64,000 nucleotides of DNA from an uncultured Clostridia bacterium (lineage in GTDB: Bacteria; Bacillota; Clostridia; Oscillospirales; CAG-272). The stretch is from NCBI GenBank assembly GCA_947624995.1, contig CANQMS010000003.1, positions 10,062 through 74,061 of the forward strand, given 5' to 3'. A program made the translations under genes and the position numbers. Every line of letters begins with the position of its first letter. The stretch's first letter is position 1. Shown one piece after another: positions 19,194 to 38,186 of the stretch. Under the pieces are notes generated by a model. It had not been told where the DNA came from and did no database searches. It saw only the letters and a list, made by a program, of their open reading frames with translations.

Positions 19194-20831
19194 TTGAAAC
19201 GTATAAAGGGCGTGATCCCCGCGGCGATCATTGCCGTTTTTTCCATCATTGCCGTATTTGCCGTCATGGCTGTCCCCGGGGATATGCCGAACGGATATGT
19301 TTTCGCGGAGGATGCCGCCCCGACCGAGGCTGAAGACCTCGAGATCGAAGTATACTGCCCCGGCGCATATACGGCGTCCGCGATCGACCGGAACGAGACA
19401 ACGTTTGCGTACATCCCGGACAGTGTGGGCGTCACCGTCTCGTCCGGGAGCCCGATCTCATCACTTTATATAGAATTCGACCGCGTGTTCGGCAAGTGGT
19501 CGCTCTCGGACGGCAGCGTCTCCGTTGAGTGCGGGCAGAACGGCTTTCTGCACGAATATGTCGACGTCGCGGAAGCGTTCGGATATTCGCCGACATCGGT
19601 GACGCTTACGTTCTCGGGCGGCACGGCGACCGTATCCGAGATCTACGCGCTCAGCGCGGGCACCCTTCCCTCGTGGGTACAGGTCTGGGAGCCGCCGTGC
19701 GAGGAAGCCGACCTCGTGCTCTTCTCGACACATATCGACGACGAGCAGCTCTTTTTCGCCGGGATCCTCCCGTATTACGCCGGAGAGCTCGGATATCAGG
19801 TCGAGGTCGTTTATTTTACCTCGCCGTATACGTATCACGACAGACCGCACGAGCAGCTGAACGGTCTTTGGACTGTCGGCGTGCGGAACTATCCGGTCGA
19901 GGGCGAGCTCATCGACTCCTATTCCGAAAACGCCGCGGACGCGTACAGCCATCAGTCATACTACGGATTTTCCCGCGATTATATCGTACAAAAGCAGGTC
20001 GAGGCGCTCCGCCGCTTCCGCCCGCACGTCGTCGTCGGGCACGATGCGAACGGAGAATACGGTCACGGACAGCACATCATAAACAGCGAGACGCTGCGCG
20101 AAGCGCTGCCGCTCGCGGCGGACGAAAGCTACGATCCCGAAACAGCCGAGAAATACGGCGTGTGGGACACGCCGAAGGCATACATCCACCTCTGGCAGGA
20201 AAACGAGATCATCATGAACTGGGACATCCCGCTCGAAAAATTCGGAGGGAAAACGGCATTTCAGGTCACGCAGGACGGCTTTATGTGCCACAAATCGCAG
20301 CACTGGACGTGGTTTTACGGCTGGATATACGGTCCCGCGAACAACATCACGAAGGCTTCGGAGATATTGACGTATTCTCCCTGCCGGTACGGACTGTTCC
20401 GCTCGACGGTCGGAGCCGACGTCAAGGGCGGCGACATGTTCGAGAACATCCCGATGTCATACGCCGAGATCGCGGCGGAGGAGGAGCGGCAGCGCCTCGA
20501 GGAGAGCCGCGCCGAGTCCGAGCGCGTCAGCCTCGAGGAGAGCATCCTCGCCTCCGAGAGCGAAAGCATCGAGGAAAGCCGCCTCGAATCTGAGGCGGGC
20601 AAAAACACCACGCAGTCCCCGACCGGCATCACCGCCGTGCCTCCCGGCACGGAAGGCGCGGGGGGCAGCGGCAGCGGCGGAAACGGCGGCTCGCCGAAGA
20701 TTGTCGGAATAATCATGATCGCGATCGCGGCAGTTGTCTGCGTTTTGCTGCTGCTGCCGCAGCTCAGGCCGAAAAAGGCAAAGAATACAAGAAACAATCA
20801 GATGAGAACGCCGCGGCAGGGACCGCGATAA
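19194..20831 (+). CDS. PIG-L/LmbE-family deacetylase with an N-terminal anchor, an acidic Ser/Glu-rich linker and a C-terminal TM
   Basis: STHIDDEQLF and VVGHDANGEYGHGQH fit the PIG-L metal-binding motifs. There is an N-terminal TM (TTG start) and a C-terminal GGNGGSPKIVGIIMIAIAAVVCVLLLL segment followed by a basic tail. Confidence 0.8.
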   Translation: MKRIKGVIPAAIIAVFSIIAVFAVMAVPGDMPNGYVFAEDAAPTEAEDLEIEVYCPGAYTASAIDRNETTFAYIPDSVGVTVSSGSPISSLYIEFDRVFGKWSLSDGSVSVECGQNGFLHEYVDVAEAFGYSPTSVTLTFSGGTATVSEIYALSAGTLPSWVQVWEPPCEEADLVLFSTHIDDEQLFFAGILPYYAGELGYQVEVVYFTSPYTYHDRPHEQLNGLWTVGVRNYPVEGELIDSYSENAADAYSHQSYYGFSRDYIVQKQVEALRRFRPHVVVGHDANGEYGHGQHIINSETLREALPLAADESYDPETAEKYGVWDTPKAYIHLWQENEIIMNWDIPLEKFGGKTAFQVTQDGFMCHKSQHWTWFYGWIYGPANNITKASEILTYSPCRYGLFRSTVGADVKGGDMFENIPMSYAEIAAEEERQRLEESRAESERVSLEESILASESESIEESRLESEAGKNTTQSPTGITAVPPGTEGAGGSGSGGNGGSPKIVGIIMIAIAAVVCVLLLLPQLRPKKAKNTRNNQMRTPRQGPR

Positions 20832-20853
20832 AGCAGAAAGACTCATAAGATCC

Positions 20854-21954
20854 ATGGGAAAGTACAACTTTACACTTGTAATACCGTCTCTCGATCCGGA
20901 TGACAAGCTTACCTCCACCGTCGGCTCCGCGCTCGAGGCAGGGATCGACGATATAATCCTCGTCGACGACGGGAGCAGCGCCGGGCACAGGGCAGTATTC
21001 GACGAGCTCGCCGGCGCGCATCCCGAGATAACGCTGCTCCGCCACGAAAAAAACCTCGGCAAGGGAGCCGCGCTGAAAACAGCGTTTTCGTATTTTCTTG
21101 AAAACAAAAAAGACCGCTCCGGCGTCGTCACCGCGGACGGAGACGGTCAGCACACGACCGAGGACATCATCGCCTGCGCCGAGGATATGGAAAAGACCGA
21201 CTGCGTCGTGCTCGGATGCCGCGATTTTTCGCTCGACTACGTCCCCAAAAAGAGCCGCTTCGGCAACCGCGCGACCTCCTTCGTCTTCCGCGTCTTCTGC
21301 GGGATGAAGATCTCCGACACACAGACGGGTCTGCGCGCGATACCGTCCGATCTGCTCGCGGATATGCTCGAGGTGAACGGGTCACGGTATGAATATGAGA
21401 CGAATATGCTTCTATATATGGGGCAGAACAGCATCCCGTACCGCGAGCATCCGATCAGAACGCTCTATTTCGATGACAACAGCGCCTCACACTTCCGCCC
21501 GTTCAGGGACTCGGTCCGCGTCTACGGGCTGATACTCAAATATATGGCGAGCTCGATTTTCTCGACCGTCGTCGACCTGTTTATGTTTTTCCTGCTCGGG
21601 CAGTTCATTTTCAACGGCGGCGGCAAGCTCGACGTCCTTTATACGACGGCGTGCGCGCGCGTCATATCCTCGTCCGTCAATTTTCTCACAAACAAAAAGC
21701 TCGTATTCCACAACCGTTCGAGCCTCGGGAAGACGCTTTTCAGATACGTCTGCGTCGCCGTTCCCGTTATGCTCGCGTCATGGCTCAGCGTATACCTGAT
21801 CTCCGAGCTGCTCGCGCTCGCCTTCGGCGTTGACGCGATAGCGCATATCGGACGCACCGCGGTCAAGATCCCCGTGGACGCGCTCCTGTTCCTCGTCAGC
21901 TTCAGAGCGCAGCGCAAATGGGTATTCGCCGAAAGATCCTCAGGCAGGAGGTAA
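20854..21954 (+). CDS. Family-2 glycosyltransferase fused to a GtrA-like membrane domain (polyprenol-phosphate sugar synthase type)
   Basis: VIPSLDPD...VDDGS...TADGDGQH is a GT-A DxD-type core. The C-terminal four-TM region with the VNFLTNKKLVF motif looks GtrA-like. Confidence 0.85.
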   Translation: MGKYNFTLVIPSLDPDDKLTSTVGSALEAGIDDIILVDDGSSAGHRAVFDELAGAHPEITLLRHEKNLGKGAALKTAFSYFLENKKDRSGVVTADGDGQHTTEDIIACAEDMEKTDCVVLGCRDFSLDYVPKKSRFGNRATSFVFRVFCGMKISDTQTGLRAIPSDLLADMLEVNGSRYEYETNMLLYMGQNSIPYREHPIRTLYFDDNSASHFRPFRDSVRVYGLILKYMASSIFSTVVDLFMFFLLGQFIFNGGGKLDVLYTTACARVISSSVNFLTNKKLVFHNRSSLGKTLFRYVCVAVPVMLASWLSVYLISELLALAFGVDAIAHIGRTAVKIPVDALLFLVSFRAQRKWVFAERSSGRR

Positions 21955-21961
21955 ATCAGAG

Positions 21962-23656
21962 ATGAACGAAAATAACATCCCGACGGAAGGCGGCGCACCG
22001 AGACGCGTTCCGCGCCACGACGTCGTGAGAAGAACGCCTCAGCGCATAGCCGAGATACCGCCGCAGCAGCCGACTGACGCCGCGCAGCAGCCTCTCCCGG
22101 CACAGCCGGAAAACGCGGCTCCGCGCCAGCCCCGACCGGTACAGCCCGGCGATACAACACCGCGCCAGCCTCGCCCGGCACAGCCCGGCGATACGGCTCC
22201 GCGTCAGCCCCGACCGGCGCAGCCCGGCGATACGGCTCCGCGTCAGCCCCGACCGGCGCAGCAGGGAGATACGGCTCAGCGTCAGCCACGACCGGCGCAG
22301 CCCGGAGACACGGCTCCGCGCCAGCCCCGACCGGTACAGCAGGGAAACACGGCTCCGCGCCAGCCCCGACCGGTACAGCCCGGCGATACGGCTCAGCGCC
22401 GACCCCAGCCGGCGCAGCAGCAGCGTGCCTCTTCCGCGGACGGCGGCGTCCGCCGCCCGCCCGTAGGCTCTCAGGTGCGGAACATGACCTCCGAGGACGC
22501 GCCTACGCGCCGCGCGAAGAAAAAGCGCCTGAGCGCGTCCATAATCGTCGGGCGCGTCCTGCTCGTCATACTCACCGTGATACTTGTGCTTCTTTTCGCG
22601 GTTTTCGCCCTCTGCGGCACTCTCGTCAACGGACCGAGCGAGACCGTGCGCGATAAGCTCGTGCTCTCCGCGATGCAGGCGAGCGCCACAAAGTGGCTGC
22701 CCGGTCTGTTCCTCGACGACGAGGTCGTCCGCGACATCTGCGACCGCAGCGAGCAGCAGCAGCCCGTCACGGTTCCGATGGGCACGATCCCCGGCGCGAA
22801 CACGCCTTCCACGGGAGAGGACACGGACACTCCCGGCACAGGTGACGATCCCACCCCGCCGGCTCCCACAGACGAATGGGCAAACGCCATCGACGGTATG
22901 ATATTCAAAACGACTACCAAACCGACCTTCAAGGCGTATATCCTCCTCATCAAGGATCCCTCCCGCGTCTTTGTCGGCACCTCGTCCGACAACTATCAGA
23001 CGGCGACCGTCGGGAAAAATATATTTGACACCGTAGCCCGTTACGACGCCCTCGCCGGAATAAATGCCGGCGAATATCTCGACATGGGCGGCGGCGGTGA
23101 CGGCGCGCAGCCGCTCGGCATAACGTATTCGAAAGGCAGCTGCGTCTGGGATGACGGCACGTGGCGCACCTTCATCGGCTTTGATAAGAACAACGTCCTG
23201 CACGCCGTGGAGCCCTTGACAAGGGCACAGGCGGATGAGCTCGGCATACGCGACGGCGTCTGCTTCCAGAACGGCAACGTCCTGATCACCAACGACGGGG
23301 AGCAGGTGACGCTCCACTATTCCGAGGGCAACACGGGACTTGCGCAGCGCACCGCGATCGCTCAGCGCGCGGACGGTACCGTCATACTCGTCGTCACGGA
23401 CGGGCGTTCTCCGTCGAGCCTCGGTGCGAACCGCAACGATATCATTGACCTTCTCGTCTCCGAGGGTGCCGTCGTCGCCGGTATGCTTGACGGCGGTTCA
23501 TCCGCAATGATGTATTATGAAAACTACTATACAAAATACAACATTGACCCCGCGGAGCTCGACGACTACCAGAAGAAGGGGCTGACAAACAGATATAAAT
23601 CATTTACCCTGCCGCGCACGATGCCGACGTTCTTCCTCGTCGGGCGCGAGAAATAA
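21962..23656 (+). CDS. Phosphodiester glycosidase (NAGPA-domain) protein with an N-terminal Pro/Gln-rich repeat, then a TM
   Basis: The C-terminal half (RTAIAQRADGTVILVVTDGR...MLDGGSSAMMYY) matches the phosphodiester glycosidase domain. There is a single TM (IIVGRVLLVILTVILVLLFAVFAL) and a repeat region at the N-terminus. Confidence 0.8.
   Translation: MNENNIPTEGGAPRRVPRHDVVRRTPQRIAEIPPQQPTDAAQQPLPAQPENAAPRQPRPVQPGDTTPRQPRPAQPGDTAPRQPRPAQPGDTAPRQPRPAQQGDTAQRQPRPAQPGDTAPRQPRPVQQGNTAPRQPRPVQPGDTAQRRPQPAQQQRASSADGGVRRPPVGSQVRNMTSEDAPTRRAKKKRLSASIIVGRVLLVILTVILVLLFAVFALCGTLVNGPSETVRDKLVLSAMQASATKWLPGLFLDDEVVRDICDRSEQQQPVTVPMGTIPGANTPSTGEDTDTPGTGDDPTPPAPTDEWANAIDGMIFKTTTKPTFKAYILLIKDPSRVFVGTSSDNYQTATVGKNIFDTVARYDALAGINAGEYLDMGGGGDGAQPLGITYSKGSCVWDDGTWRTFIGFDKNNVLHAVEPLTRAQADELGIRDGVCFQNGNVLITNDGEQVTLHYSEGNTGLAQRTAIAQRADGTVILVVTDGRSPSSLGANRNDIIDLLVSEGAVVAGMLDGGSSAMMYYENYYTKYNIDPAELDDYQKKGLTNRYKSFTLPRTMPTFFLVGREK
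22121..22423 (+). repeat. 39-bp in-frame tandem repeat, about 7.7 copies, encoding PRQPRPAQPGDTA
   Basis: Read directly from the sequence: ccgcgccagccccgaccggtacagcccggcgatacaaca and its variants repeat head-to-tail. The peptide units are PRQPRPVQPGDTT / PRQPRPAQPGDTA / ...QQGDTA / ...QQGNTA. Confidence 0.9.
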
Positions 23657-23674
23657 GCAAAGGGGGACTACTTC

Positions 23675-24841
23675 ATGGCTATGAAGAAAAGCAACGCGCG
23701 CCGCGGCTTTCATATTCCGCGCTTTTACGTGATATATCTCGCCGTGACCGTATCGGTGATACTGATAATAATCGCCTCTCTCGGCATCGTTTCAAACCGT
23801 CTCGCCGAATACGAGGACGCGCAGCCGAAATATGTCGCCTCCGAGATATTCGCGCGCTATTTCGAACCCTCCGTCAACTATGACGCGCTCCTTGACGACG
23901 CACGCTACGACCGCGAGGCGGGGACGCGCGAGGCGCTGAAGATGTATCTCATAAACGAGATCGGCGAGAGCGAGGTCACATATTCCGCCTCCTCCGCAAG
24001 TGAAGACGAGATGAAATACATCGTCCGCGCCGGTTCAAAGCAGCTCGCCTCCATCATCCTCAAGGCGTCCGACGAGAAGACCGAGCACGGTTACACTCAG
24101 TATGAGTTCTCTTATATCGAGCTGTTTATCAATACGGCGGGCGGCAGCACGAACCCGCCCGAGACCGAGGAGCAGCCGAAAACGGTCACGCTCTATTTCG
24201 ATGTTCCCTCGGGCTACACAGTCACCGTTGACGGCACCGCTCTCACCGGGGAAAACATTACCCAGAAACACATGAACAAGGACGCCATAATGTATTTCCC
24301 TCCCGAATCGGAAAATACGGAAGGGCTTGAATTCTCGATCTACATGCTGAACACGCTCGAAGCGCCGCCCGAAAAGGTGACCGTCACGGACGCCGAGGGC
24401 AACGAAGCCGAGGTCAAATATAACGCGGAAACGAGGACGTACACCGCCGGGCTCGCGTATTCAAAATCACTCGCCGACGAGTATTCCGAATTTGTGACGG
24501 CTGCGATGACGGATTTCGCCGCATTCGGTCAGGGCGCACAGGACAAGAGCCTTTTGGGAATGCAATACAGCGGTCACTTTGACCTGAACTCCACGGCGAA
24601 CGAAAAGCTCATCACCCAGGCGGGCGCGCTTTGGACGATATGGGCGCCCTCGAGCTACGATTTTGCCGATATTGAGATCGGCGAATTCTACAAATTCTCG
24701 GACGACGTCTTTTCCTGCCATATTTCGTTCAAGCTGCTGCTCGAACGGGACGGTCAGAGCTTCAGCGAGATCATGGATTATTACGTGTTCCTGCACAATG
24801 TGGACGGGCAGTTCCTGATTTACGACTGGTTCAACGCGTAA
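23675..24841 (+). CDS. Hypothetical membrane-anchored extracytoplasmic protein
   Basis: 388 aa with a single N-terminal TM (FYVIYLAVTVSVILIIIASLGIV). I recognise no motif. It is tightly spaced within the cluster, 4 nt before the PAP2 gene region. Confidence 0.6.
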   Translation: MAMKKSNARRGFHIPRFYVIYLAVTVSVILIIIASLGIVSNRLAEYEDAQPKYVASEIFARYFEPSVNYDALLDDARYDREAGTREALKMYLINEIGESEVTYSASSASEDEMKYIVRAGSKQLASIILKASDEKTEHGYTQYEFSYIELFINTAGGSTNPPETEEQPKTVTLYFDVPSGYTVTVDGTALTGENITQKHMNKDAIMYFPPESENTEGLEFSIYMLNTLEAPPEKVTVTDAEGNEAEVKYNAETRTYTAGLAYSKSLADEYSEFVTAAMTDFAAFGQGAQDKSLLGMQYSGHFDLNSTANEKLITQAGALWTIWAPSSYDFADIEIGEFYKFSDDVFSCHISFKLLLERDGQSFSEIMDYYVFLHNVDGQFLIYDWFNA

Positions 24842-24854
24842 AGGGGTGCCGGAT

Positions 24855-25406
24855 ATGAATGTAAGCGAGCTTGCAATTCTCGATTTCATCGCCGAGCACC
24901 TGCGCTGCCCCTTCCTCGACTTTCTGCTGCCGAAGATTACGCTGCTCGGAGACGCGGGGATATTCTGGATAATCCTCGCGATAGCGCTCCTGATCCCTAA
25001 AAAAACGCGCAAAACGGGGCTCATGATGGCTGTCGCCCTCATCCTCGGGCTTCTCGTCTGCAACATAACGATAAAGCCTCTCGTCGCGCGCGTCCGCCCG
25101 TATGACGTCAAGGGAATAATGCCGTATCTGTGCGAGGTGCAGAAGGACTTCTCCTTCCCGTCCGGGCATACGACGGCAAGCTTTGAGGGCGCGACCGTCA
25201 TCCTCATCCGCCACCGCAAGTGGGGGATCGCCGCCTGCGTGCTCGCCGCGCTGATTGCGTTCTCGCGGATGTACCTCTACGTCCACTACCCCACCGATAT
25301 CCTCGCCGGACTCGTGCTCGGCGTCCTCTTCGGCATACTCGGCGTCCTCATCGTCGACCGCCTCGACGCATACATACAAAAACACAAAACGCCGGCGGCG
25401 GAATAA
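24855..25406 (+). CDS. PAP2-family phosphatase (undecaprenyl-diphosphatase/PgpB-like)
   Basis: PAP2 motifs KxxxxxxRP (KPLVARVRP), PSGH (SFPSGHTT) and SRxxxxxHxxxD (SRMYLYVHYPTD). The ATG at 24855 follows AAAGGGG. Confidence 0.85.
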   Translation: MNVSELAILDFIAEHLRCPFLDFLLPKITLLGDAGIFWIILAIALLIPKKTRKTGLMMAVALILGLLVCNITIKPLVARVRPYDVKGIMPYLCEVQKDFSFPSGHTTASFEGATVILIRHRKWGIAACVLAALIAFSRMYLYVHYPTDILAGLVLGVLFGILGVLIVDRLDAYIQKHKTPAAE

Positions 25407-25425
25407 ATAATAACAGATGATTTAT

Positions 25426-25463
25426 CCGGGGGGAGGAACCTTTGAAAAGGTTCCTCCCCCCGG
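25426..25463 (+). terminator. Long GC hairpin after the PAP2 gene (terminator-like, no clear U-tract)
   Basis: CCGGGGGGAGGAACCTTT-GA-AAAGGTTCCTCCCCCCGG forms a perfect 18-bp stem. Confidence 0.5.
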
Positions 25464-25644
25464 TCCCCCCTCTTCAAAACTTTTCATTACTTGGTTTGGC
25501 TTACAGCGAGCGTGAGCACTTTTTCCACAGCTTTTTGCATGTAAAAAACAATGCTCCTTAAATTTTTCTTTTTCATCTTCATCCCAACCTTTTTGACGCT
25601 TTTGATGTCTATATAACGAAAGCTTTCAACGAAAGGAATTAAAA

Positions 25645-28600
25645 ATGCCTCATTCTTCAAATTCGGACGGCACGCTCGTGCTCCTGACGCTCGCGGGTGA
25701 CCCCGCCGCATATGACGAGCTGTTCCTGCGCCATGAAAAGCGCGTCCTCGCGGCGGCGTATTCCGTTATACGCAACGCACACATCGCCGAGGACGCTGCG
25801 CAGGACGCCTTTCTGGCGGCGTGGCTCAAGCTCGACCGGCTCCGCGAACCGGAAAAGTTCGGGATATGGGTCTGCCGCATCGCCAAAAACTGCGCCCGGA
25901 ACATGGCGCTGCGGTTCAGGAACTATCTCTGCCTCGACGACGTCGAGGGGATAGAGTACATGCGCGCCGACGGCGGGGACCCGGAGCTGATGCTCATGAC
26001 GGAGGAGGAGGCAGAACTCATGCGCCGCGGACTGCGCAGACTCCCCGAGCGCGCCCGTCAGGTCGTCTATCTGCACTATTACGAGGACATGAGCGCGGAG
26101 GACATCGCAAAGCTGATGGGCATATCGGTGGGGACGGTCAAATCGCAGCTCCACGACGGCAGAAAGAAAATGCGAAAGGAGCTATGCGCAATGGATGAAA
26201 AATTAAACGACACGCTTCTTCTGAAGATCAGGAAAAAGATCGACGAAGTAAAAAGCTGGCAGTACAAAAACTCAAAGGAGGGCTTTGACAAGGTCTATCG
26301 TGACGTTTTGAAGGACATCGACACGATGCCCGAGTGCCGCGAGAAATATCACGCCTTGGCGGACGTTCTGATGCGCGGGTACTGGTGGCTGCCGGGAGAG
26401 AAAAACGACTGTCTGCTCGGGCGCATACGCGAGGCGGCAAAGCTCGGCAAAAACAACGAGGTCATGAGCTATGTGCTTGTCCGCGAGGCGGCAAAATATT
26501 GGGGTGATGAAAAGCGGGAGTACATCAAAAACGTGCAGATCCCGTCCCTTGATCCCGTCGATTTCCGGCTCACGCTCGCGGACAGGTGGTGCGCCGTCGG
26601 CGACTTGACAAAGCCCGAAAACTTAAAGGACGGCACGGACGCCTTTGACAGCGCGCTCGCGCTCCTGACCCCGGCAGACGTTTTATACCATCACGCGCTT
26701 GAAATGAAAAAAGCCTTTCTGGAGTCGGCAGAAGAGAAATTCATAAGCGACATTAAGAACCGCAAAAACGTCTGTGTGACTTATGAATTCGTCATGTCGG
26801 ACGGCTTAAAAATAGCCCGAGACGAATACTACAGCTTCGGCGGTCTTTACGCGCTGAACTATATGTGTACGCAGCTGTTTGAAAATCTTTTCAGGTGCGA
26901 CGGGGAAATGACGGCGGATATAGCGCCGGGCGAGAGCGTCACCGCCTCGGACGGCTCGACGCTCACGTTTGAATCGGGGGACGAGACGGTCACGGTCCCG
27001 GCGGGGACGTTTTCCGGCTGTGAGGTCTGGGTGTCGCGCTTAAAAGCCGGCACGGTCAGAAGCTGGCTCAAGCGCGGCGTCGGACTCGTCAGGCAAGAGA
27101 TGATCTGCGAGGGCGTCAGCGACATCAAATCACTGAAAGCCTATAGCGTCTCCGGCGATGAGGGGCTTTTGCCGTTGTCTGCCGGCAACGTTTGGGAATA
27201 TGAGATGGACTGCGACCCCGCGTCGTTTTCCGCGCCGACGCGGATCAGGGTTGCGTGGTCCGACGGCGAGCGGGCGATCGTTACGGAGAATACGCGCGTC
27301 GTCCGGAGCAGGTATGACGAGAACTCATGGCTCGATATGATCCTGAAGACCCGCGACGATTACTGCACGAGGAACCCGGAGAGGATCGCTGACGTAAGAC
27401 CTTATGCACGGCGCGCCGTGGAGCTCGCGAAGACTCCGTTTGAAAAGGCGCACGCTGAGGCGGCTTATTCCGTCGTCAAAAGGATAATCGAGACGGACGA
27501 AGAATTCGATCCCGAATGCGAGGCTGTGGGGCTCTGGAACTTCTTCTCCCGCAATACGGTCGAGCATGCTGACGGAAAGCTCTGCCTTATCAGAACCGGC
27601 CGGAGATTTGACTTTGAGTGGAAGAACACGGACGACACCTCGCTGTGCAATCGCCTGCTCTCAAATCACATCTATTCGATTTTGCACGACGTAACAGGCT
27701 GTCTCTTTGACGAGAGGTGGCAGCCCGGGTACAGTTCAGAGGAATCGAGGGATTACGGCAGCAACAGCATCATCAGGACGCGTATAAGCTGCGCGGACGC
27801 GGGAACGGTCACCGTATGCGCCGGGAGTTTTGATAACTGTCTTTCCGTCGACACATACTGCGGCGGGTTTGACAGCGGCCACAGCTACCGCGGCGGCAGG
27901 AGGACGTATTATTTCGCGCCCGGCGTGGGACTCGTAAAGGTGGAGATATACACGGGCGCCGGTTCCGTGAGCGCGTATGAGCTGACCTCATACGAAGGCA
28001 CGGGCGAAGGGTATATGCCCGCAAAAGACGGGATGAGGCGCAGATACGAGGGCCTCGGGCTTACCGACGGCTACGAGGGCGCGGCGGAATACACATACGC
28101 TCTTGACTGCGAGGGCAAGCTCGTGATCTTCTCGGACTTGACGGGTATCAGACATAAGCCGAAAAAGATCACCCGCTATAATTCGACCGTAGGCGAGCTT
28201 GAAGAGGCGTGCCTCGCGAACACGGAAAACTATGACGGAGCAAACCTTGAGTCCGGATACAACGCGATACTTCTTCTTCTGCACCAAACGTCAAAGAGAG
28301 ACTGCCACTACAGCGACCCGCTCACAAGGGCGAGGAGATTTACCTATTACCTGCGGCTGCTCGAGGCGGCGGGGGACGGCAGCGTTCCGCCCGCGTTCCT
28401 TGCGAAAGCGTCACGGATATGCCTTTTGGCATCGCTCGCGTTTTTCGGCGGCGGCGAGCACGAGAACGGGTACAAATATCTCGAGCTTGCGCTCGACTAT
28501 GCCGAGCGGTGGCACGCGATACCGGACGGCGAGGCGCTCTCCTTCGGCGACGAGGCGGCGTTTGACAACATCCGCTATATCAAGGGGCAGTCGATAATAG

Positions 28601-28785
28601 AGCTGCCGGACGGCACAAAGCGCGAGATCGACGCCGACGGCACGATCGACGGCTGGCTCTCCGACAGCGGGATGATATACCGCGCCATGACGTCGACACA
28701 GCGGAGCTGGGGCTGGTTCGACCCCGCGAGGGAGGACGAAAGATATAAAAAGCTCACAGAAAGGGCGAAAAAGCTCACGGAATAA
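25645..28785 (+). CDS. ECF-type sigma-70 family factor fused to an ~860-aa C-terminal extension of unknown function
   Basis: Residues 1-180 carry sigma region 2 (AEDAAQDAFLAAWLKLDRL) and a region 4.2 HTH (MSAEDIAKLMGISVGTVKSQLHDGRKKMRKEL). The ORF then continues without a stop for 864 more codons. No TM or zinc anti-sigma motif is seen. Confidence 0.8.
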   Translation: MPHSSNSDGTLVLLTLAGDPAAYDELFLRHEKRVLAAAYSVIRNAHIAEDAAQDAFLAAWLKLDRLREPEKFGIWVCRIAKNCARNMALRFRNYLCLDDVEGIEYMRADGGDPELMLMTEEEAELMRRGLRRLPERARQVVYLHYYEDMSAEDIAKLMGISVGTVKSQLHDGRKKMRKELCAMDEKLNDTLLLKIRKKIDEVKSWQYKNSKEGFDKVYRDVLKDIDTMPECREKYHALADVLMRGYWWLPGEKNDCLLGRIREAAKLGKNNEVMSYVLVREAAKYWGDEKREYIKNVQIPSLDPVDFRLTLADRWCAVGDLTKPENLKDGTDAFDSALALLTPADVLYHHALEMKKAFLESAEEKFISDIKNRKNVCVTYEFVMSDGLKIARDEYYSFGGLYALNYMCTQLFENLFRCDGEMTADIAPGESVTASDGSTLTFESGDETVTVPAGTFSGCEVWVSRLKAGTVRSWLKRGVGLVRQEMICEGVSDIKSLKAYSVSGDEGLLPLSAGNVWEYEMDCDPASFSAPTRIRVAWSDGERAIVTENTRVVRSRYDENSWLDMILKTRDDYCTRNPERIADVRPYARRAVELAKTPFEKAHAEAAYSVVKRIIETDEEFDPECEAVGLWNFFSRNTVEHADGKLCLIRTGRRFDFEWKNTDDTSLCNRLLSNHIYSILHDVTGCLFDERWQPGYSSEESRDYGSNSIIRTRISCADAGTVTVCAGSFDNCLSVDTYCGGFDSGHSYRGGRRTYYFAPGVGLVKVEIYTGAGSVSAYELTSYEGTGEGYMPAKDGMRRRYEGLGLTDGYEGAAEYTYALDCEGKLVIFSDLTGIRHKPKKITRYNSTVGELEEACLANTENYDGANLESGYNAILLLLHQTSKRDCHYSDPLTRARRFTYYLRLLEAAGDGSVPPAFLAKASRICLLASLAFFGGGEHENGYKYLELALDYAERWHAIPDGEALSFGDEAAFDNIRYIKGQSIIELPDGTKREIDADGTIDGWLSDSGMIYRAMTSTQRSWGWFDPAREDERYKKLTERAKKLTE

Positions 28786-28810
28786 CGCACACGTCTTTCG
28801 GGCAAAAATA

Positions 28811-28860
28811 CCGGGGGAGGGACCTTTTTGGGGGTCCCTCCCCCGGCGGTTTTTATTTTG
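28811..28860. terminator. Bidirectional rho-independent terminator
   Basis: Stem CCGGGGGAGGGACC / GGTCCCTCCCCCGG followed by CGGTTTTTATTTTG. It lies between convergent genes. Confidence 0.7.
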
Positions 28861-30733: not shown

Positions 30734-30782
30734 GTGAGTTTCGAAAGTAAATTCCGCAGCGGAATTTACTTTCGAAACTCAC
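30734..30782. promoter_or_regulatory. 49-bp perfect palindrome in the abfA / M42 divergent intergenic region
   Basis: GTGAGTTTCGAAAGTAAATTCCGC-A-GCGGAATTTACTTTCGAAACTCAC has 24-bp arms with no mismatch. Confidence 0.6.
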
Positions 30783-30885: not shown

Positions 30886-31938
30886 TTGTCAGAATTTTTT
30901 GAAATACTCTCCCGGCTGTCTGCGGCAAGCTCGCTCGTCGGTCACGAGACTGCCGACAGCGGCGCTCTCACCGATCTTTTGTCCCCGTACTTTGACGACT
31001 GGCGCGTTGACAGCGTCGGGAACCATATTTTCCACCGCCGCGCGTCGGAGCCGGGCGCGCCGCGCCTTATGATAGACGCGCACTATGACGCGGTCGGTCT
31101 GCTCGTCACCGATATAACGGACGAGGGGTGCCTCCTCGTGACGCGGCTCGGCGGCGTTGACCGCCGCATCCTCCCCGCCTCCGAGGTGACCGTATACGCG
31201 CGCGAGCCGATCTTCGGTGTCGTCGCCTCGACGCCGCCGCACCTGATCTCCGGCGACGACCGCGACAAGGTCGCCCCGATAGAGGAAATGCGCATTGATA
31301 CGGGATATTCGAAATCGGAGCTTGAGGCGCTCGGCGTCCGCGTCGGCACGACGGTCGGCTACCGCGCGCCGTTTACAAAGCTGCTCGGCGGCAGAGCCGC
31401 CGGCGTCGCCTTTGACGACAAGGCGTGCCTCGCCGCGGCGATATGCGCCGTAAAAATGATGGGGGACGACCGCGGTCGCTTCGACGTCTATGTCGTCGCC
31501 TCCGCCGAGGAGGAGACGGGCATGTCCGGCGCCGAGAAGGCGGCGTTCGCGATCACCCCCGACCTCGCGCTCGTGCTGGACGTCGGCTTTGCATCCGCCC
31601 CCGGCTCGCCGGAGGAAAACGGGACATCTCCTCTCGGCTCCGGCGTCATCGTCTCATTCTCCGCCGTCACGAACGTTAAGCTGACGCGCCGCGTCATGCA
31701 CATTGCCGACGACGAAAATATAAAATACACCGTCTCGGCGGAGCCCTCCGGTACCGGCACGAACGGTGACGACGTGACGCTCGCCGCGGGCGGCGTTCCG
31801 ACCGTCGTGCTCGGGATCCCGCTCCGCTCGATGCACACTCCCGCCGAGGTCATAGACGAGGCGGACGCGCTCGAGCTCTCAAAGCTCGTCCTTGCCGTGA
31901 TGAAAAACCGTGAACTGGAGGTGTGGTGCCGTGAGTAA
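30886..31938 (+). CDS. M42-family metallopeptidase (TET/FrvX/CelM-like), paralog 1
   Basis: [26 protein letters not shown] and [11 protein letters not shown] fit the M42 metal-ligand regions. It has a TTG start after AAAGGA. Confidence 0.85.
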
Positions 31939-33007
31939 CAAATTATCCGGTATCGAGCTTTTGCGCGAGCTCTCGCTCACGTTCGGACCGACCGGGTGTG
32001 AGGACAACGTCTCAGACCTCGTCCGGGCGCAGATAAGCGACATTGCGGACGAGGTGAGGCGCGACAAAATGGGCAATCTGACGGCGGTCATATACGGCGC
32101 CGACCACGGGACAGACCGCGAGCGCCGCGTCATGTTCTCCGCCCACATGGACGAGGTCGGGTTCATGATAAAGAACGTCAACTCCGACGGGACGCTCTCG
32201 TTTATGAACCTCGGCGGCATCGTCGGCTCCGCGCTCCCCGCGCGCCGCGTCACCGTCGGCGACGAGAACTGCCGCGTCCCCGGCGTTATCGGCACAAAGC
32301 CGATACACCTACTGAAGGGCGACGAGCGCGAGGCGATGCCGAAGCTCTCCGAGCTCTATATAGACATCGGCGCGAAGGACAAGGATGAGGCGGAGGGATA
32401 CGTCAAGCGCGGCGCGTTCGCGACGTTTGACTCCGAGTTCGTCCGCTTCGGCAGCGGCGGCAAATATATAAAGGGCAAGGCGCTCGACGACCGCTTCGGC
32501 TGCGCCGCCTTAATCGAGCTTGGGCGCGCGCTCCGAGAGGCACAATACCTGCCCGGGCACGACACGTATCTCGCGTTCACCGTGCGCGAGGAGGTCGGCA
32601 AATCCGGAGCGGAGACGACGGCGTACGCCGTCGACCCGCACATGGCGTTCGTCCTTGAGGCGACCGCCGTCGCCGATAACTCCGGTGCGCTCCGCGAAAA
32701 GCAGGTCGCCCGCCTCGGCGAGGGACCCGCGATCTCCTTCATGGACCGCTCGACGATATATCTGCGCGAGGTCTATGACTTCGTTCTCAAAACCGCCGCC
32801 GCGCACGGCATAAAGGCACAGCCGAAGCGCTTTGTCTCCGGCGGCAATGACGCCGGGCATATCCACAAAACGCGCGCCGGAATAAAAACGGCGGCGATCT
32901 CCGCCCCCGCGAGATATATCCACACCGCCTCCTGTGTCATCCACGAGGATGACTTTTACGAGACGGTCCGTCTGCTCACCGCCCTCTCCGAGGACATAAA
33001 GCTCTGA
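31931..33007 (+). CDS. M42-family metallopeptidase, paralog 2
   Basis: [24 protein letters not shown] and [10 protein letters not shown] are present. The GTG at 31931 (GGAGGTG 7 nt upstream) overlaps the previous stop. An alternative GTG lies at 31910. Confidence 0.85.
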
Positions 33008-33034
33008 ATCCGGAAGAAATAAAGAGGAAAAGAT

Positions 33035-34015
33035 ATGTATACACTGCTGAAAGATCTCATAAAGCCGCTCGGCGTCTCCGGGCGTGAGGGCGCTGTCCGC
33101 GCCGTGATCGAAGAAAAGATCTCGCCGTACGTCGACGAGGTATATACGGACGCGCTCGGCAACCTGATCGCGCACAAGCGCGGACCGGAGGGCGCGCCGA
33201 AGCTCATGTTTGCCGCCCATATGGACGAGATCGGCTTTTTCGTCACCGACATCGACGACGGCGGCAGAGTCTGTTTCTCCGCCGCCGGAGGCATCCGCTT
33301 TGACGCCGCCGCATACGGCGAGGTCGTGTTCGAAAACGGCACGCACGGCGTTCTCGTCGCGAATGACGACGCGAAATCTCCCGCCGCGGACTGCTGCTAC
33401 GTCGATATCGGCGCCTCCTCGCGCCGCGACGCCGAGCGCCGCGTACGGACGGGGGACACGTTTGCCGTCGCGTCCTCGCTGCGCCGCATCGGCGCTCATC
33501 TCGCCGCGGGCCGCCCAGTCGACGACCGCATAGGCTGCGCCGTCCTGATAAAGACCGCGATGAGCGCAAATTCGCCGAGATACGACGTTTACTACACGTT
33601 CACCGTACAGGAGGAGGTCGGCTGCCGCGGCTCGAAGACAGCCGCATACGCCATCATGCCGGACATCTCCGTCGCCATCGACATAACGAAGACGGGCGAC
33701 ACCCCCGGCGCGCCCAAAATGGCGGTCCGGCTCGGGGACGGCGCCGCGATAAAAGTGAAGGATTCCTCCGTCATCTCCGACCCTGCGCTCGTCGAAGAAA
33801 TGGCAAAACTCTGCCGCGAGAGGGGAATAAAGCATCAGTTCGAGGTTTTGACCCGCGGCGGGACGGACACGTCCTCGATGCAGTCCGCCGGAGCGGGCAG
33901 CCGCGCCGGATGCATCTCGATCCCGACGAGATATTCGCACACGCCGGTCGAGATGATCGACCTGCGGGACGCTGAGGCGTGCGCCGCGCTCGCGGCGGCG
34001 CTGGTCGAAGGATAA
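33035..34015 (+). CDS. M42-family metallopeptidase, paralog 3
   Basis: FAAHMDEIGFFVTDI, VDDRIGCAV and VQEEVGCRGS are present. Confidence 0.85.
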   Translation: MYTLLKDLIKPLGVSGREGAVRAVIEEKISPYVDEVYTDALGNLIAHKRGPEGAPKLMFAAHMDEIGFFVTDIDDGGRVCFSAAGGIRFDAAAYGEVVFENGTHGVLVANDDAKSPAADCCYVDIGASSRRDAERRVRTGDTFAVASSLRRIGAHLAAGRPVDDRIGCAVLIKTAMSANSPRYDVYYTFTVQEEVGCRGSKTAAYAIMPDISVAIDITKTGDTPGAPKMAVRLGDGAAIKVKDSSVISDPALVEEMAKLCRERGIKHQFEVLTRGGTDTSSMQSAGAGSRAGCISIPTRYSHTPVEMIDLRDAEACAALAAALVEG

Positions 34016-38140: not shown

Positions 38141-38186
38141 GTGGGGAGAGGAAAACTTTTTTATAAAAAAGTTTTCCTCTCCCCAC
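38141..38186. repeat. Perfect 46-bp palindrome between the ATPase and helicase genes
   Basis: GTGGGGAGAGGAAAACTTTTTTA|TAAAAAAGTTTTCCTCTCCCCAC has 23-bp arms with no mismatch. Confidence 0.9.

Follow-up and report, generated by a model that had tools for sequence, protein, structure and literature searches.

Among the means of signal transduction in bacteria, ECF sigma factors are a major one; the groups understood least are those whose regulator forms part of the sigma polypeptide itself. In ECF42 (Streptomyces venezuelae; Pseudomonas putida ECF-10), the ECF core is followed by a conserved, soluble extension of ~200 residues, formed only by TPR; an anti-sigma gene is lacking, and regulation of the core is attributed to the extension (PMC8999054, PMC7826278). 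In ECF41 and ECF56 (SigJ, Ecf41Bli, SigG1), the same polypeptide bears a SnoaL-like domain of 100–150 residues, a fold of the small-molecule-binding type proposed to switch the core by conformational change. The extensions of the sigma/anti-sigma hybrids (IutY; ECF48/52/53), for which an origin by translational fusion with an anti-sigma in the distant past has been proposed (PMC8999054), contain a recognizable anti-sigma domain, e.g., zf-HC2, together with membrane helices, and activation takes place by regulated proteolysis. ECF groups that bear an extension usually lack an adjacent anti-sigma gene (PMC7826278). Concerning Planctomycetes, their ECF extensions reach up to ten times the size of the sigma core, and they are poorly conserved, heterogeneous, and probably the product of fortuitous capture of neighbouring sequence (PMC7671368).

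The gene considered here is a single ORF without interruption, located in the window, i.e., the whole stretch of 64,000 nucleotides analysed, and it codes for an ECF sigma factor fused to an extension (Table 1). The preliminary description had recognized a complete ECF sigma factor in the N-terminal ~180 residues, and this was borne out for residues 1–181: Pfam placed Sigma70_r2 at residues 26–87 and Sigma70_r4_2 at residues 126–176, while the generic ECF model TIGR02937 scored 89 bits versus a cut-off of 42.9. Regions 1 and 3 gave no match in Pfam and NCBIfam profile searches of the protein. It is thus an ECF (group 4) member of the sigma-70 family, with regions 2 and 4 only. The best solved relatives of the core were SigW, AlgU and RpoE, and the SigG1 structure 7qh5 matched the protein through the sigma core only. 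None of the specific NCBIfam sigma models reached its cut-off, the best one being TIGR02983 (107.5 versus 141.6).

Beyond the sigma core, the frame continues for ~864 codons. The extension is soluble, with no membrane segment (maximum Kyte–Doolittle mean over 19 residues, 1.54), and no anti-sigma domain was found in it by Pfam, either in the complete protein or in pieces of the extension, or by PDB profiles; its N-terminal helices matched no known anti-sigma domain. This agrees with the earlier observation of a long extension devoid of both elements. Its length was also confirmed; the accompanying remark, that the extensions familiar to its author are far shorter, needs qualification, since those of Planctomycetes, poorly conserved as they are, reach up to ten times the core (PMC7671368). 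The AF2 model had a pLDDT of 83.8 overall and of 93.1 over residues 370–845. The extension is predicted, with high confidence, to begin with a region of helical repeats, to continue with two DUF3108-like beta domains that are duplicates of each other, and to end in a helical domain at the C-terminus, and a short flexible linker would join it to the sigma core. Residues 177–188 of this linker are predicted to be disordered (pLDDT < 50) and are nearly invariant in sequence. The TPR signal was weak and limited to residues 312–354 in the PDB-profile search, and some homologues carry precomputed TPR matches of Pfam. The two beta domains are internal duplicates with the common motif AGxFxxC...GVGLV. 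Profile PF21347 (DUF3108-like) scored 32.8 bits on the whole protein, as a sum over two partial stretches (gathering threshold, 27 bits), and 18.9 and 18.8 bits on each beta domain alone, where only profile positions 138–196 of 199 were aligned. Beta domain 2 also matched weakly the DUF3108 lipoprotein 4fvs. The fold search yielded no convincing solved-structure match for the extension; the best one for the beta domains, the di-domain aromatase/cyclase 4xrw, was weak (probability 0.84, TM < 0.2), so that ligand binding by these domains is only a suggestion. Membership in the SRPBCC/Bet v1-like helix-grip ligand-binding folds, judged by structural superposition, is no more than possible. The C-terminal module varies by branch, being absent from the ~840-aa forms and different in P0218.

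Table 1. Features of the sigma-extension locus (positions in the window; residues of the 1046-aa protein)
Feature	Position	Strand	Basis or remark
Perfect GC-rich hairpin, 17 bp	25426..25463	+	20 nt past the PAP2 stop
−35 element CCCAACC, ECF-type promoter	25583..25589	+	motif in 73/78 related loci, fixed spacing
−10 element TGTCTA, ECF-type promoter	25606..25611	+	motif in 73/78 related loci, fixed spacing
Leader palindrome GAAAGCTTTC	25618..25627	+	near the transcription start
Shine–Dalgarno (SD) GAAAGGA of the annotated start	25631..25637	+	mean SD energy of true starts in the family, −7.2 kcal/mol
Sigma-extension ORF	25645..28785	+	1046 aa plus stop; full-length homologues at 40–100% identity
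Sigma region 2, residues 8–92	25666..25920	+	Pfam Sigma70_r2; AF2 helices; sequence matches to solved ECFs
Sigma region 4, residues 120–181	26002..26187	+	Pfam Sigma70_r4_2, E 6e-19; AF2 model
Internal SD-like AAAGGAG, codons 177–179 (Arg-Lys-Glu)	26175..26181	+	lowest synonymous entropy in the gene
In-frame ATG, Met183, candidate start of an 864-aa product	26191..26193	+	conserved Met plus SD
All-helical TPR-like region, residues 185–368, with the highly conserved HALADVLMRGYWW helix	26197..26748	+	AF2
Beta domain 1, DUF3108-like, residues 373–554	26761..27306	+	AF2, pLDDT 93; PF21347 sub-threshold alone
Beta domain 2, DUF3108-like, residues 627–840	27523..28164	+	AF2; Pfam; duplicate of beta domain 1
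C-terminal helical domain, residues 849–1046	28189..28782	+	AF2; missing from the shorter (~840 aa) family branch
Bidirectional intrinsic-terminator-like hairpin, 14-bp perfect stem	28811..28846		flanked by A-run and T-run

Compared with the described systems, the protein resembles ECF42 in having an ECF core with a conserved soluble extension that starts with helical, TPR-like repeats, and in lacking an anti-sigma gene. It differs from ECF42 in the 864 residues of the extension, with weak TPR signal and with two beta domains and a helical domain; in the phylum, as it comes from Clostridia; in the lack of a YCII-type neighbour among the recurrent neighbour families; and in the conserved internal SD and ATG, not reported for ECF42 in the literature searched. 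No SnoaL-like domain of the kind present in ECF41/56/294/295/205 was matched by Pfam, even at E ≤ 10 on pieces of the sequence. Unlike the hybrids of ECF48/52/53 and IutY, it has neither an anti-sigma domain nor membrane helices, while the ribosome-binding site and ATG retained at the junction would fit an origin by fusion like theirs. With the Planctomycetes ECFs it shares an extension several times the size of the core (PMC7671368), which here is conserved from end to end. Among the groups described in the main text of PMC7826278 there is no Firmicutes ECF group with a comparable extension, and neither a description of this sigma-extension family nor one of the function of DUF3108 was found in the literature searched.

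The sigma-plus-extension fusion occurs in more than 500 database proteins and in at least 452 species-level genomes, with identities down to ~27%; the family has ~400 clusters at 50% identity. All the carriers are uncultured gut Clostridia/Oscillospiraceae. Among the 120 homologues listed, 119 are full-length, with 1039–1103 aa and 40–100% identity. The extension starts at residue 156–221, mostly at ~180–200, as judged from the intact N-termini among 150 listed of 398 representatives, and it is conserved over its entire length across hundreds of species. The gene belongs to a large and so far undescribed family of ECF sigma factors, cytoplasmic and found in gut Clostridia. Six candidates for stand-alone extensions, with 660–690 aa, appeared in the search of representatives. 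Four of them (P0155, P0166, P0174 and P0187) are fusions truncated by the end of the contig, which starts 18–34 nt upstream and is in-frame through ...GRKxLRKE...; in L087 there is instead a frameshift in the sigma linker. Upstream of the sixth, L088 (28% identity), the contig offers no more than 181 nt, where every frame has stops and where a degenerate remnant of region 4 may be present. From truncated contigs of this family, gene callers choose the ATG of Met183, and they make false 'stand-alone' proteins that start at the internal ATG, which is of practical consequence.

Concerning the genomic neighbourhood, the upstream genes on the same strand are PIG-L, GT2/GtrA, NAGPA, an unknown 388-aa gene and PAP2, and downstream there are convergent genes for DUF6171 and a GH51 arabinofuranosidase. 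No anti-sigma gene is found in the window next to the sigma-extension gene, as had been noted before, and in the 78 related loci, too, no anti-sigma gene recurs beside the sigma gene. Neither is there a conserved partner gene in these loci: the commonest neighbour is present in 14 of the 78, with varying position and orientation. PADLOC gave no match. The gene is a self-contained, monocistronic unit without a partner gene.

The pattern CCCAACCTTTT-N11-nTGTCT is found upstream of the gene in 73 of the 78 related loci, with invariant spacing. Judged by sequence conservation, it has the AAC-containing −35 and the GTC/CGT-type −10 of ECF promoters. Since this promoter precedes the gene in nearly all the loci, the sigma factor probably activates its own expression, i.e., it is probably under positive autoregulation. 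A position weight matrix of the promoter gave in the 64-kb window a single match (score 38) and no second site, and in 956 kb of related loci three extra sites. In metagenomes, high-scoring copies occur almost only 5′ of genes of this family; a scan of metagenome contigs for the exact pattern returned 114 matches, ~36 of them promoters of the family itself, with no recurring non-sigma target. These scans brought out no member of a regulon. Of 69 related leaders, 62 contain a perfect palindrome, 8 nt or longer, versus 9.4 expected; it is fixed in position and variable in sequence. Neither the leader nor the hairpin had a credible match in Rfam.

Two accounts of the origin of this arrangement deserve consideration. 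According to one, a sigma gene and a partner gene, both ordinary, would owe their union in this genome to a sequencing error or, as raised in the preliminary description, to a lost stop or an indel. A contig of low coverage (L082, 2.5x) does have a frameshift just past the junction, and so does the L087 contig in the sigma linker. Against this, one frame is kept in hundreds of independent assemblies and the four truncated contigs account for most of the apparent stand-alone extensions, so the probability of this account is practically nil. According to the other, the gene would be a laterally acquired, AT-rich cassette delimited by two related hairpins. The hairpins do exist at the positions given, the first with a perfect stem of 17 bp and the second with one of 14 bp, and they are ordinary, terminator-type elements. 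The first one probably serves the upstream operon as its terminator or 3′ hairpin and does not belong to the sigma unit; it was missed by the terminator scan because no T-run follows on the + strand. The second is shared between the sigma gene and the convergent genes for DUF6171 and GH51. Other genes of the window end in similar G-rich hairpins of the GGGGAG type (at 1981, 34028, 38140, 48873 and 57014), the number of occurrences of the pattern (5, with 2.97 expected) does not exceed chance, and the two hairpins, which lie outside the conserved block, are absent from ~1 Mb of related loci, so they do not form a special bracket. Composition did not sustain the case for lateral transfer either: the gene, with GC 0.578 and GC3 0.747, departs by less than 1 SD from the values of 36 long ORFs in the window (0.603 ± 0.027 and 0.773 ± 0.065), and GC is low (0.48) only in the intergenic promoter region 25400–25800. 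In favour of a cassette, it can be said that similarity to the closest relative, L002 (91% nucleotide identity), is confined to 25566–28785, i.e., the promoter plus the ORF, with unrelated flanks, and that the gene occupies differing contexts across the family. Yet no integrase, transposase or direct repeats adjoin it, and the same hairpin-bounded block was not seen at different sites in related genomes. Such a cassette is considered very improbable.

In-frame internal starts giving two isoforms are known for CheA-L/CheA-S, IF2 alpha/beta and ClpB, where an SD and a start codon inside the ORF lead to a full-length and a C-terminal product from one mRNA. The locus studied here is a candidate for the same. 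The preliminary description had pointed out an AAAGGAG located 9 nt 5′ of an in-frame ATG at the junction, and both are present. Met183 is nearly invariant across the family, 27%-identical relatives included, and the SD energy before it is −5 kcal/mol or lower in 77 of 77 loci, with a mean of −7.28 kcal/mol; the true starts have −7.20, and the remaining internal Met codons −2.3. Codon usage is also constrained: the codon of Lys178 is AAG in 71 of 71 genes (35% to 87% in other conserved Lys columns), and that of Arg177 is xGA in 71 of 75 (95%, versus 27% gene-wide), counts that come from phylogenetically related sequences and overstate the number of independent events. Codons 170–178 form the window of lowest synonymous entropy of the gene (0.62 versus a mean of 0.85, SD 0.05). 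The SD-like motif is maintained despite amino-acid changes (RGE, RKD, RKG), also in the 27%-identical relatives, the ATG keeps a fixed distance of 8–10 nt from it, and A-rich codons follow. The SD and the start codon are thus conserved beyond amino-acid requirement, and from these alignments the AAAGGAG-9 nt-ATG of the junction is seen to be under nucleotide-level selection. This gives comparative support, short of proof, to a second product started at Met183, a separately made C-terminal part, as had been suggested. In the literature searched, there was no case of internal starts in sigma/anti-sigma genes or giving a pair of sigma factor and regulatory module.

With no partner gene and a long soluble extension, a built-in regulator or sensor, as first suggested, is the most reasonable reading. 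The extension would stand in for the missing anti-sigma, holding or modulating the sigma core, and a cytoplasmic ligand or partner protein might bind to the beta or TPR domains and so free the core. Ribosomes probably start also at the SD and ATG of the junction, which would give the fusion plus the free 864-aa extension; the latter could act in trans, e.g., as surplus inhibitor or sensor setting the threshold of the autoregulatory loop. Altogether, an autoregulated ECF family whose extension replaces the anti-sigma, and whose internal start gives a free 864-aa extension, is the account towards which we lean. That one ORF yields a tethered sigma-sensor/inhibitor and a free sensor/inhibitor, with their ratio setting the switch point of a self-activating circuit, is a tentative proposal, somewhat on the doubtful side.

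Other explanations of the junction and of the extension have to be weighed. The conserved A-AAG-G could be a −1 frameshift site, with a sigma-only product ending a few codons later: 'A AAG' is a known shift-prone motif, the −1 frame of the window reaches a TGA at codons 184–185, and the final A of Arg177 and the invariable AAG of Lys178 would fit. This would not explain the conservation of GGA(G/A), of Met183 and of their fixed spacing; moreover, codon 184 shows no constraint (observed/expected 0.97) at its third position, on which the out-of-frame TGA depends, and no stimulatory structure was identified, so that frameshifting appears as remote as the cassette, if not slightly more. Another possibility is that a protease releases the sigma core by cutting the linker RKELCAM(D/N)EK, whose conservation would then be that of a protease site. 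This would be in agreement with a linker predicted to be disordered yet nearly invariant, and such a mechanism has been described for other ECFs with an extension (PMC8999054). A protease site acts, however, at the amino-acid level, and it leaves unexplained the synonymous invariance of AAG and xGA and the survival of the purine-rich motif through amino-acid changes; as the explanation of the conservation, it is quite unlikely. Proteolysis and an internal start are not mutually exclusive. Somewhat less unlikely, though still improbable, is that the extension is a cargo or effector module (scaffold, enzyme, RNA polymerase tether) rather than a regulator of sigma, and that the SD-like motif slows ribosomes for co-translational folding. 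The very large size and multi-domain character of the extension, the failure to detect an anti-sigma-like domain, and the differences in the C-terminal module between branches speak in its favour. On the other hand, in the ECF groups described in reviews as having a conserved C-terminal extension and no anti-sigma partner, the extension has a regulatory role, either established or predicted (PMC7826278, PMC8999054), and pausing does not account for the ATG conserved at fixed spacing or for the A-rich codons after it.

The interest of the built-in regulator lies in that the family is large, confined to poorly studied gut Clostridia, and provided with a conserved sensor-like module of 860 residues. 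If the internal start is true, a compact, testable single gene would yield both a tethered and a free regulator, with a bearing on how sigma/anti-sigma stoichiometry is set. If the two products have the roles proposed, this would be a previously undescribed sigma/anti-sigma wiring, widespread in uncultured gut Clostridia, in which the sensor fold would be a pair of DUF3108-like domains without known ligand.

The gene is a single uninterrupted open reading frame of 1046 codons, whose residues 1–181 constitute a complete ECF sigma factor according to Pfam and NCBIfam, with Sigma70_r2 at residues 26–87 and Sigma70_r4_2 at residues 126–176 (E 6e-19). The sigma core scored above the cut-off of the generic ECF model TIGR02937, while none of the specific NCBIfam sigma models reached its cut-off with it. 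The nearest solved structures were SigW, AlgU and RpoE, the similarity being limited to the core. In the remaining 864 residues, a membrane scan found no membrane segment and a Pfam search no anti-sigma domain, which agrees with the preliminary description of a complete core followed by a continuation devoid of both; the AAAGGAG, the in-frame ATG and the two hairpins it reported were also located in place. The coordinates of these and other features are summarized in the table.

Coordinates of features in the window, in the protein and in related loci
Feature	Position	Remark
PIG-L-like deacetylase, GT2 with GtrA domain, NAGPA phosphodiester glycosidase, unknown 388-aa protein, PAP2 phosphatase	19194-25406	5′ cluster, same strand
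Hairpin	25426	3′ of upstream operon
Promoter motif CCCAACCTTTT-N11-nTGTCT	25583-25611	window
Leader palindrome GAAAGCTTTC	25618-25627	window
Fused sigma gene	25645-28785	+ strand
AAAGGAG	26175-26181	junction
In-frame ATG (Met183)	26191	junction
Hairpin	28811	bidirectional terminator between convergent genes
DUF6171 and GH51 arabinofuranosidase genes		3′ of sigma gene, convergent
Perfect inverted repeat, 23 bp	30734-30782	divergent AT-rich region, GC 0.46-0.48
Three tandem M42 peptidase genes	30886-34015	
Perfect hairpin, 22 bp, GGGGAG-type stem	38140-38187	gene boundary
Perfect hairpin, 11 bp, GGGGAG-type stem	48873-48904	gene boundary
Region 2	residues 8-92	AlphaFold2
Disordered linker	residues 92-118	AlphaFold2
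Region 4	residues 120-181	AlphaFold2
Short low-confidence junction	residues 177-188	AlphaFold2
Ten helices	residues 185-368	AlphaFold2
Beta domain 1	residues 373-554	AlphaFold2
Helices	residues 562-616	AlphaFold2
Beta domain 2	residues 627-840	AlphaFold2
Helical domain with small beta insertion	residues 849-1046	AlphaFold2
Sigma gene with extension, ~560 aa	L032 71-1821	related locus
Sigma gene with extension, ~560 aa	L016 9317-10999	related locus
Sigma gene with extension, ~560 aa		two other related loci
Serine recombinase gene	L205 3719-5125	locus of a 28% identical relative
Extra strong promoter-motif copy	L035 1167-1207	score 41.7, 5′ of small ORF

The AlphaFold2 model of the whole protein, run with a 40-sequence alignment, gave a mean pLDDT of 83.8 and a pTM of 0.69, and residues 370–845 modelled separately reached 93.1 and 0.89, respectively. 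The two beta domains duplicate each other within the protein (31% identity over 83 residues, E 2e-4), sharing the motif TVTVxAGxFxxC...GVGLV...EG..P, and each contains a Cys that never varies across the 40 aligned sequences. Each matches just the C-terminal third of the Pfam DUF3108-like domain, with either match alone falling below threshold.

Searching 5.8 billion proteins yielded 550 matches; among those listed, 119 out of 120 were full-length proteins (1039–1103 aa, 40–100% identity). When each species was represented by a single genome, a relative turned up in at least 452 genomes. The 80 fetched loci all belong to metagenome-assembled genomes assigned to gut Clostridia, Oscillospiraceae or 'Eubacteriales', the hosts being rabbit, goat, sheep, deer, chicken and human, and the closest relative among them was a rabbit-gut Clostridia genome (90% identity). 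When the extension alone was searched against 1.84 billion cluster representatives, 398 matches were obtained; in those listed with an intact N-terminus the extension began at residue 156–221, mostly at ~180–200, so that a sigma core precedes it. Two main architectures were found, a long one of ~1040–1130 aa, which includes the gene of the window, and a short, more diverse one of ~830–890 aa that ends past the second beta domain. In a few relatives the C-terminal module is of another kind.

Of six proteins resembling stand-alone extensions, closer checking explained five. Four (P0155, P0166, P0174 and P0187, at loci L083–L086) were artefacts of contigs starting 18–34 nt 5′ of the internal ATG, with the reading frame open through the end of region 4, and in L087 a frameshift inside the sigma linker splits the gene; the sixth is a distant case. 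A frameshift also splits the gene in locus L082, covered 2.5x. The possibility that a lost stop or an indel had joined two separate genes is thus refuted, since the fusion is kept across hundreds of homologues and the stand-alone candidates are mostly artefacts. Judging from these comparisons, the fusion is real and old. Two related loci from one assembly (CAZIOV01), L010 and L019, hold gene copies that lie on separate contigs and share the same upstream sequence, which may be either a recent duplication or assembly redundancy. Four related loci contain, next to the 1050-aa gene, a member of another family of C-terminally extended sigma factors (~560 aa), and the fused sigma gene of L205 is immediately followed by a gene for a serine recombinase with Resolvase/Recombinase domains.

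The suggestion that AAAGGAG before the in-frame ATG might allow the C-terminal part to be made separately gained support from both predicted Shine-Dalgarno (SD) energies and codon constraint. The counts come from sequences that share ancestry and are not independent events; synonymous positions outside the junction are, however, well mixed in these genes. The predicted SD:anti-SD energy before Met183 was −5 kcal/mol or lower in 77 of 77 loci, with a mean (−7.28 kcal/mol) close to that of the true start codons (−7.20 kcal/mol), versus a mean of −2.3 kcal/mol for 1803 other internal Met codons, 18% of which reach −5. Lys178 is encoded by AAG in all 71 genes, compared with 35–87% in ten other conserved Lys columns and 60% gene-wide for Lys before a codon starting with GA. 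Arg177 is AGA or CGA in 71 out of 75 genes versus 27% gene-wide, and Glu185, two codons past the ATG, is GAA in 92%. In a sliding scan of the whole alignment, codons 170–178 formed the window of lowest synonymous entropy (observed/expected 0.62; gene mean 0.85, sd 0.05). The purine-rich motif is retained where the residues vary (RGE, RKD, RKG, RRE), and relatives with 27–28% identity in the extension still present AAAGGAG(A/G), a spacing of 8–10 nt and the ATG. Met183 itself occurs in ~90% of diverse representatives, and where a sequence is truncated just 5′ of its ATG, gene callers independently pick that codon.

These comparisons indicate nucleotide-level conservation of the AAAGGAG-9 nt-ATG arrangement. 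The junction is a predicted disordered linker and still nearly invariant, which is the expected outcome of such a constraint; linker conservation could alternatively reflect a protease site. The SD-like motif could likewise cause ribosome pausing, and A-AAG could be a −1 slippage site, but none of these three alternatives accounts for all the junction features. The simplest reading, well supported but unproven, is a functional internal start that would yield a free 864-aa extension beside the fusion. It fits an origin in which a sigma gene, whose 3′ end held the ribosome-binding site of a downstream partner, was fused to that partner.

Concerning expression of the gene, CCCAACCTTTT-N11-nTGTCT precedes 73 out of 78 related genes, with a spacer of 11 nt in 72 of those, and shows the AAC/−35 and GTC/−10 character of ECF promoters. 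With a matrix derived from 70 sites, the only site in the 64-kb window was the gene's own (score 38; all else <12), and 956 kb of related flanks held just three extra strong sites. The exact pattern gave 114 matches in metagenome contigs, the high scorers lying almost all 5′ of family genes, and no non-family target recurred. The gene is a self-contained and probably autoregulated unit. The same motif is found 5′ of the ~560-aa sigma gene of L032 (matrix score 33.8). At locus L035, the extra copy is followed by a small ORF and then by the gene for a 503-aa protein bearing a MutS-type ATPase motif; this site may mark a regulon member there. The −35/−10 pair is not unique to the family, as exact CCCAACCTTTT-N11-GTGTCT also precedes unrelated, ordinary-length ECF sigma genes in pattern-matched loci L124, L145, L198, L154 and L187; in the first three, metagenome contigs whose GC is low to moderate, a membrane-protein gene follows.

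Perfect palindromes of at least 8 nt occur in 62 out of 69 related leaders (loci L002–L081) versus 9.4 expected, most of them starting 5–9 nt 3′ of the −10 element. They are clade-specific (AAGCGCTT, GAGCGCTC, TGAGTACTCA, GATGCATC and that of the window), palindromy being kept despite sequence change, and in clades whose leaders are longer, another palindromic position follows 20–25 nt further 3′. The palindrome could be an operator, a 5′-terminal RNA hairpin or something else.

The AT-rich cassette bracketed by two hairpins, proposed in the preliminary description, did not hold. The gene has GC 0.578 and GC3 0.747, versus 0.603±0.027 and 0.773±0.065 for 36 long ORFs of the window, and the AT-rich stretch is only the intergenic promoter region. 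The hairpins are alike, but lie outside the block common with the closest relative; the same G-rich GGGGAG-type stem recurs at 1981, 34028, 38140, 48873 and 57014, and ~1 Mb of related loci contained no copy of the arm sequence. Both features are ordinary. A listed ORF start at 38141, inside one such hairpin, is probably too far upstream. The 23-bp inverted repeat lies between the GH51 and M42 peptidase genes.

The absence of an adjacent anti-sigma gene was borne out, the neighbours in the window being unrelated to sigma control. The 5′ cluster resembles an operon for modifying cell-envelope glycopolymers, and its position beside the sigma gene is not conserved in relatives; clustering the flanking ORFs of 78 related loci revealed no conserved neighbour gene. 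In the 91% identical copy of L002, similarity is confined to promoter plus ORF (25566–28785). The differing contexts across genomes imply that the gene moved over evolutionary time; no mobile-element marks were found adjoining it.

Among known systems, ECF41/56 bear a regulatory SnoaL-like extension of 100–150 residues and ECF42 a regulatory TPR extension of ~200 residues, neither with an anti-sigma gene (PMC7826278, PMC8999054). The Clostridia gene resembles them in having a C-terminal extension and no anti-sigma gene, but Pfam detected in it no domain by which those groups are defined. Membrane helices and a recognisable anti-sigma domain mark the hybrid sigma/anti-sigma ECFs; this protein has neither. 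Planctomycetes ECFs carry very long extensions that are heterogeneous and poorly conserved (PMC7671368). The searched literature gave no description of the Clostridia family, nor of an internal start in a comparable gene; a few members may be filed in one of the groups of the ECF reclassification. The feature is genuine: it represents a large and new variant, at family level, among ECF sigma factors regulated by an extension.

Beside the observed architecture, conservation, promoter motif, lack of a partner gene and internal SD/ATG constraint, a mechanism can be proposed in which the sigma core would drive its own promoter, the extension would stand in for the missing anti-sigma factor and switch the core upon a cytoplasmic ligand or partner, and free extension made from Met183 would act in trans, tuning the switch. 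We consider conservation of the internal start the most interesting result; that start, well supported though unproven, would place a second layer on an extension-bearing ECF sigma factor.
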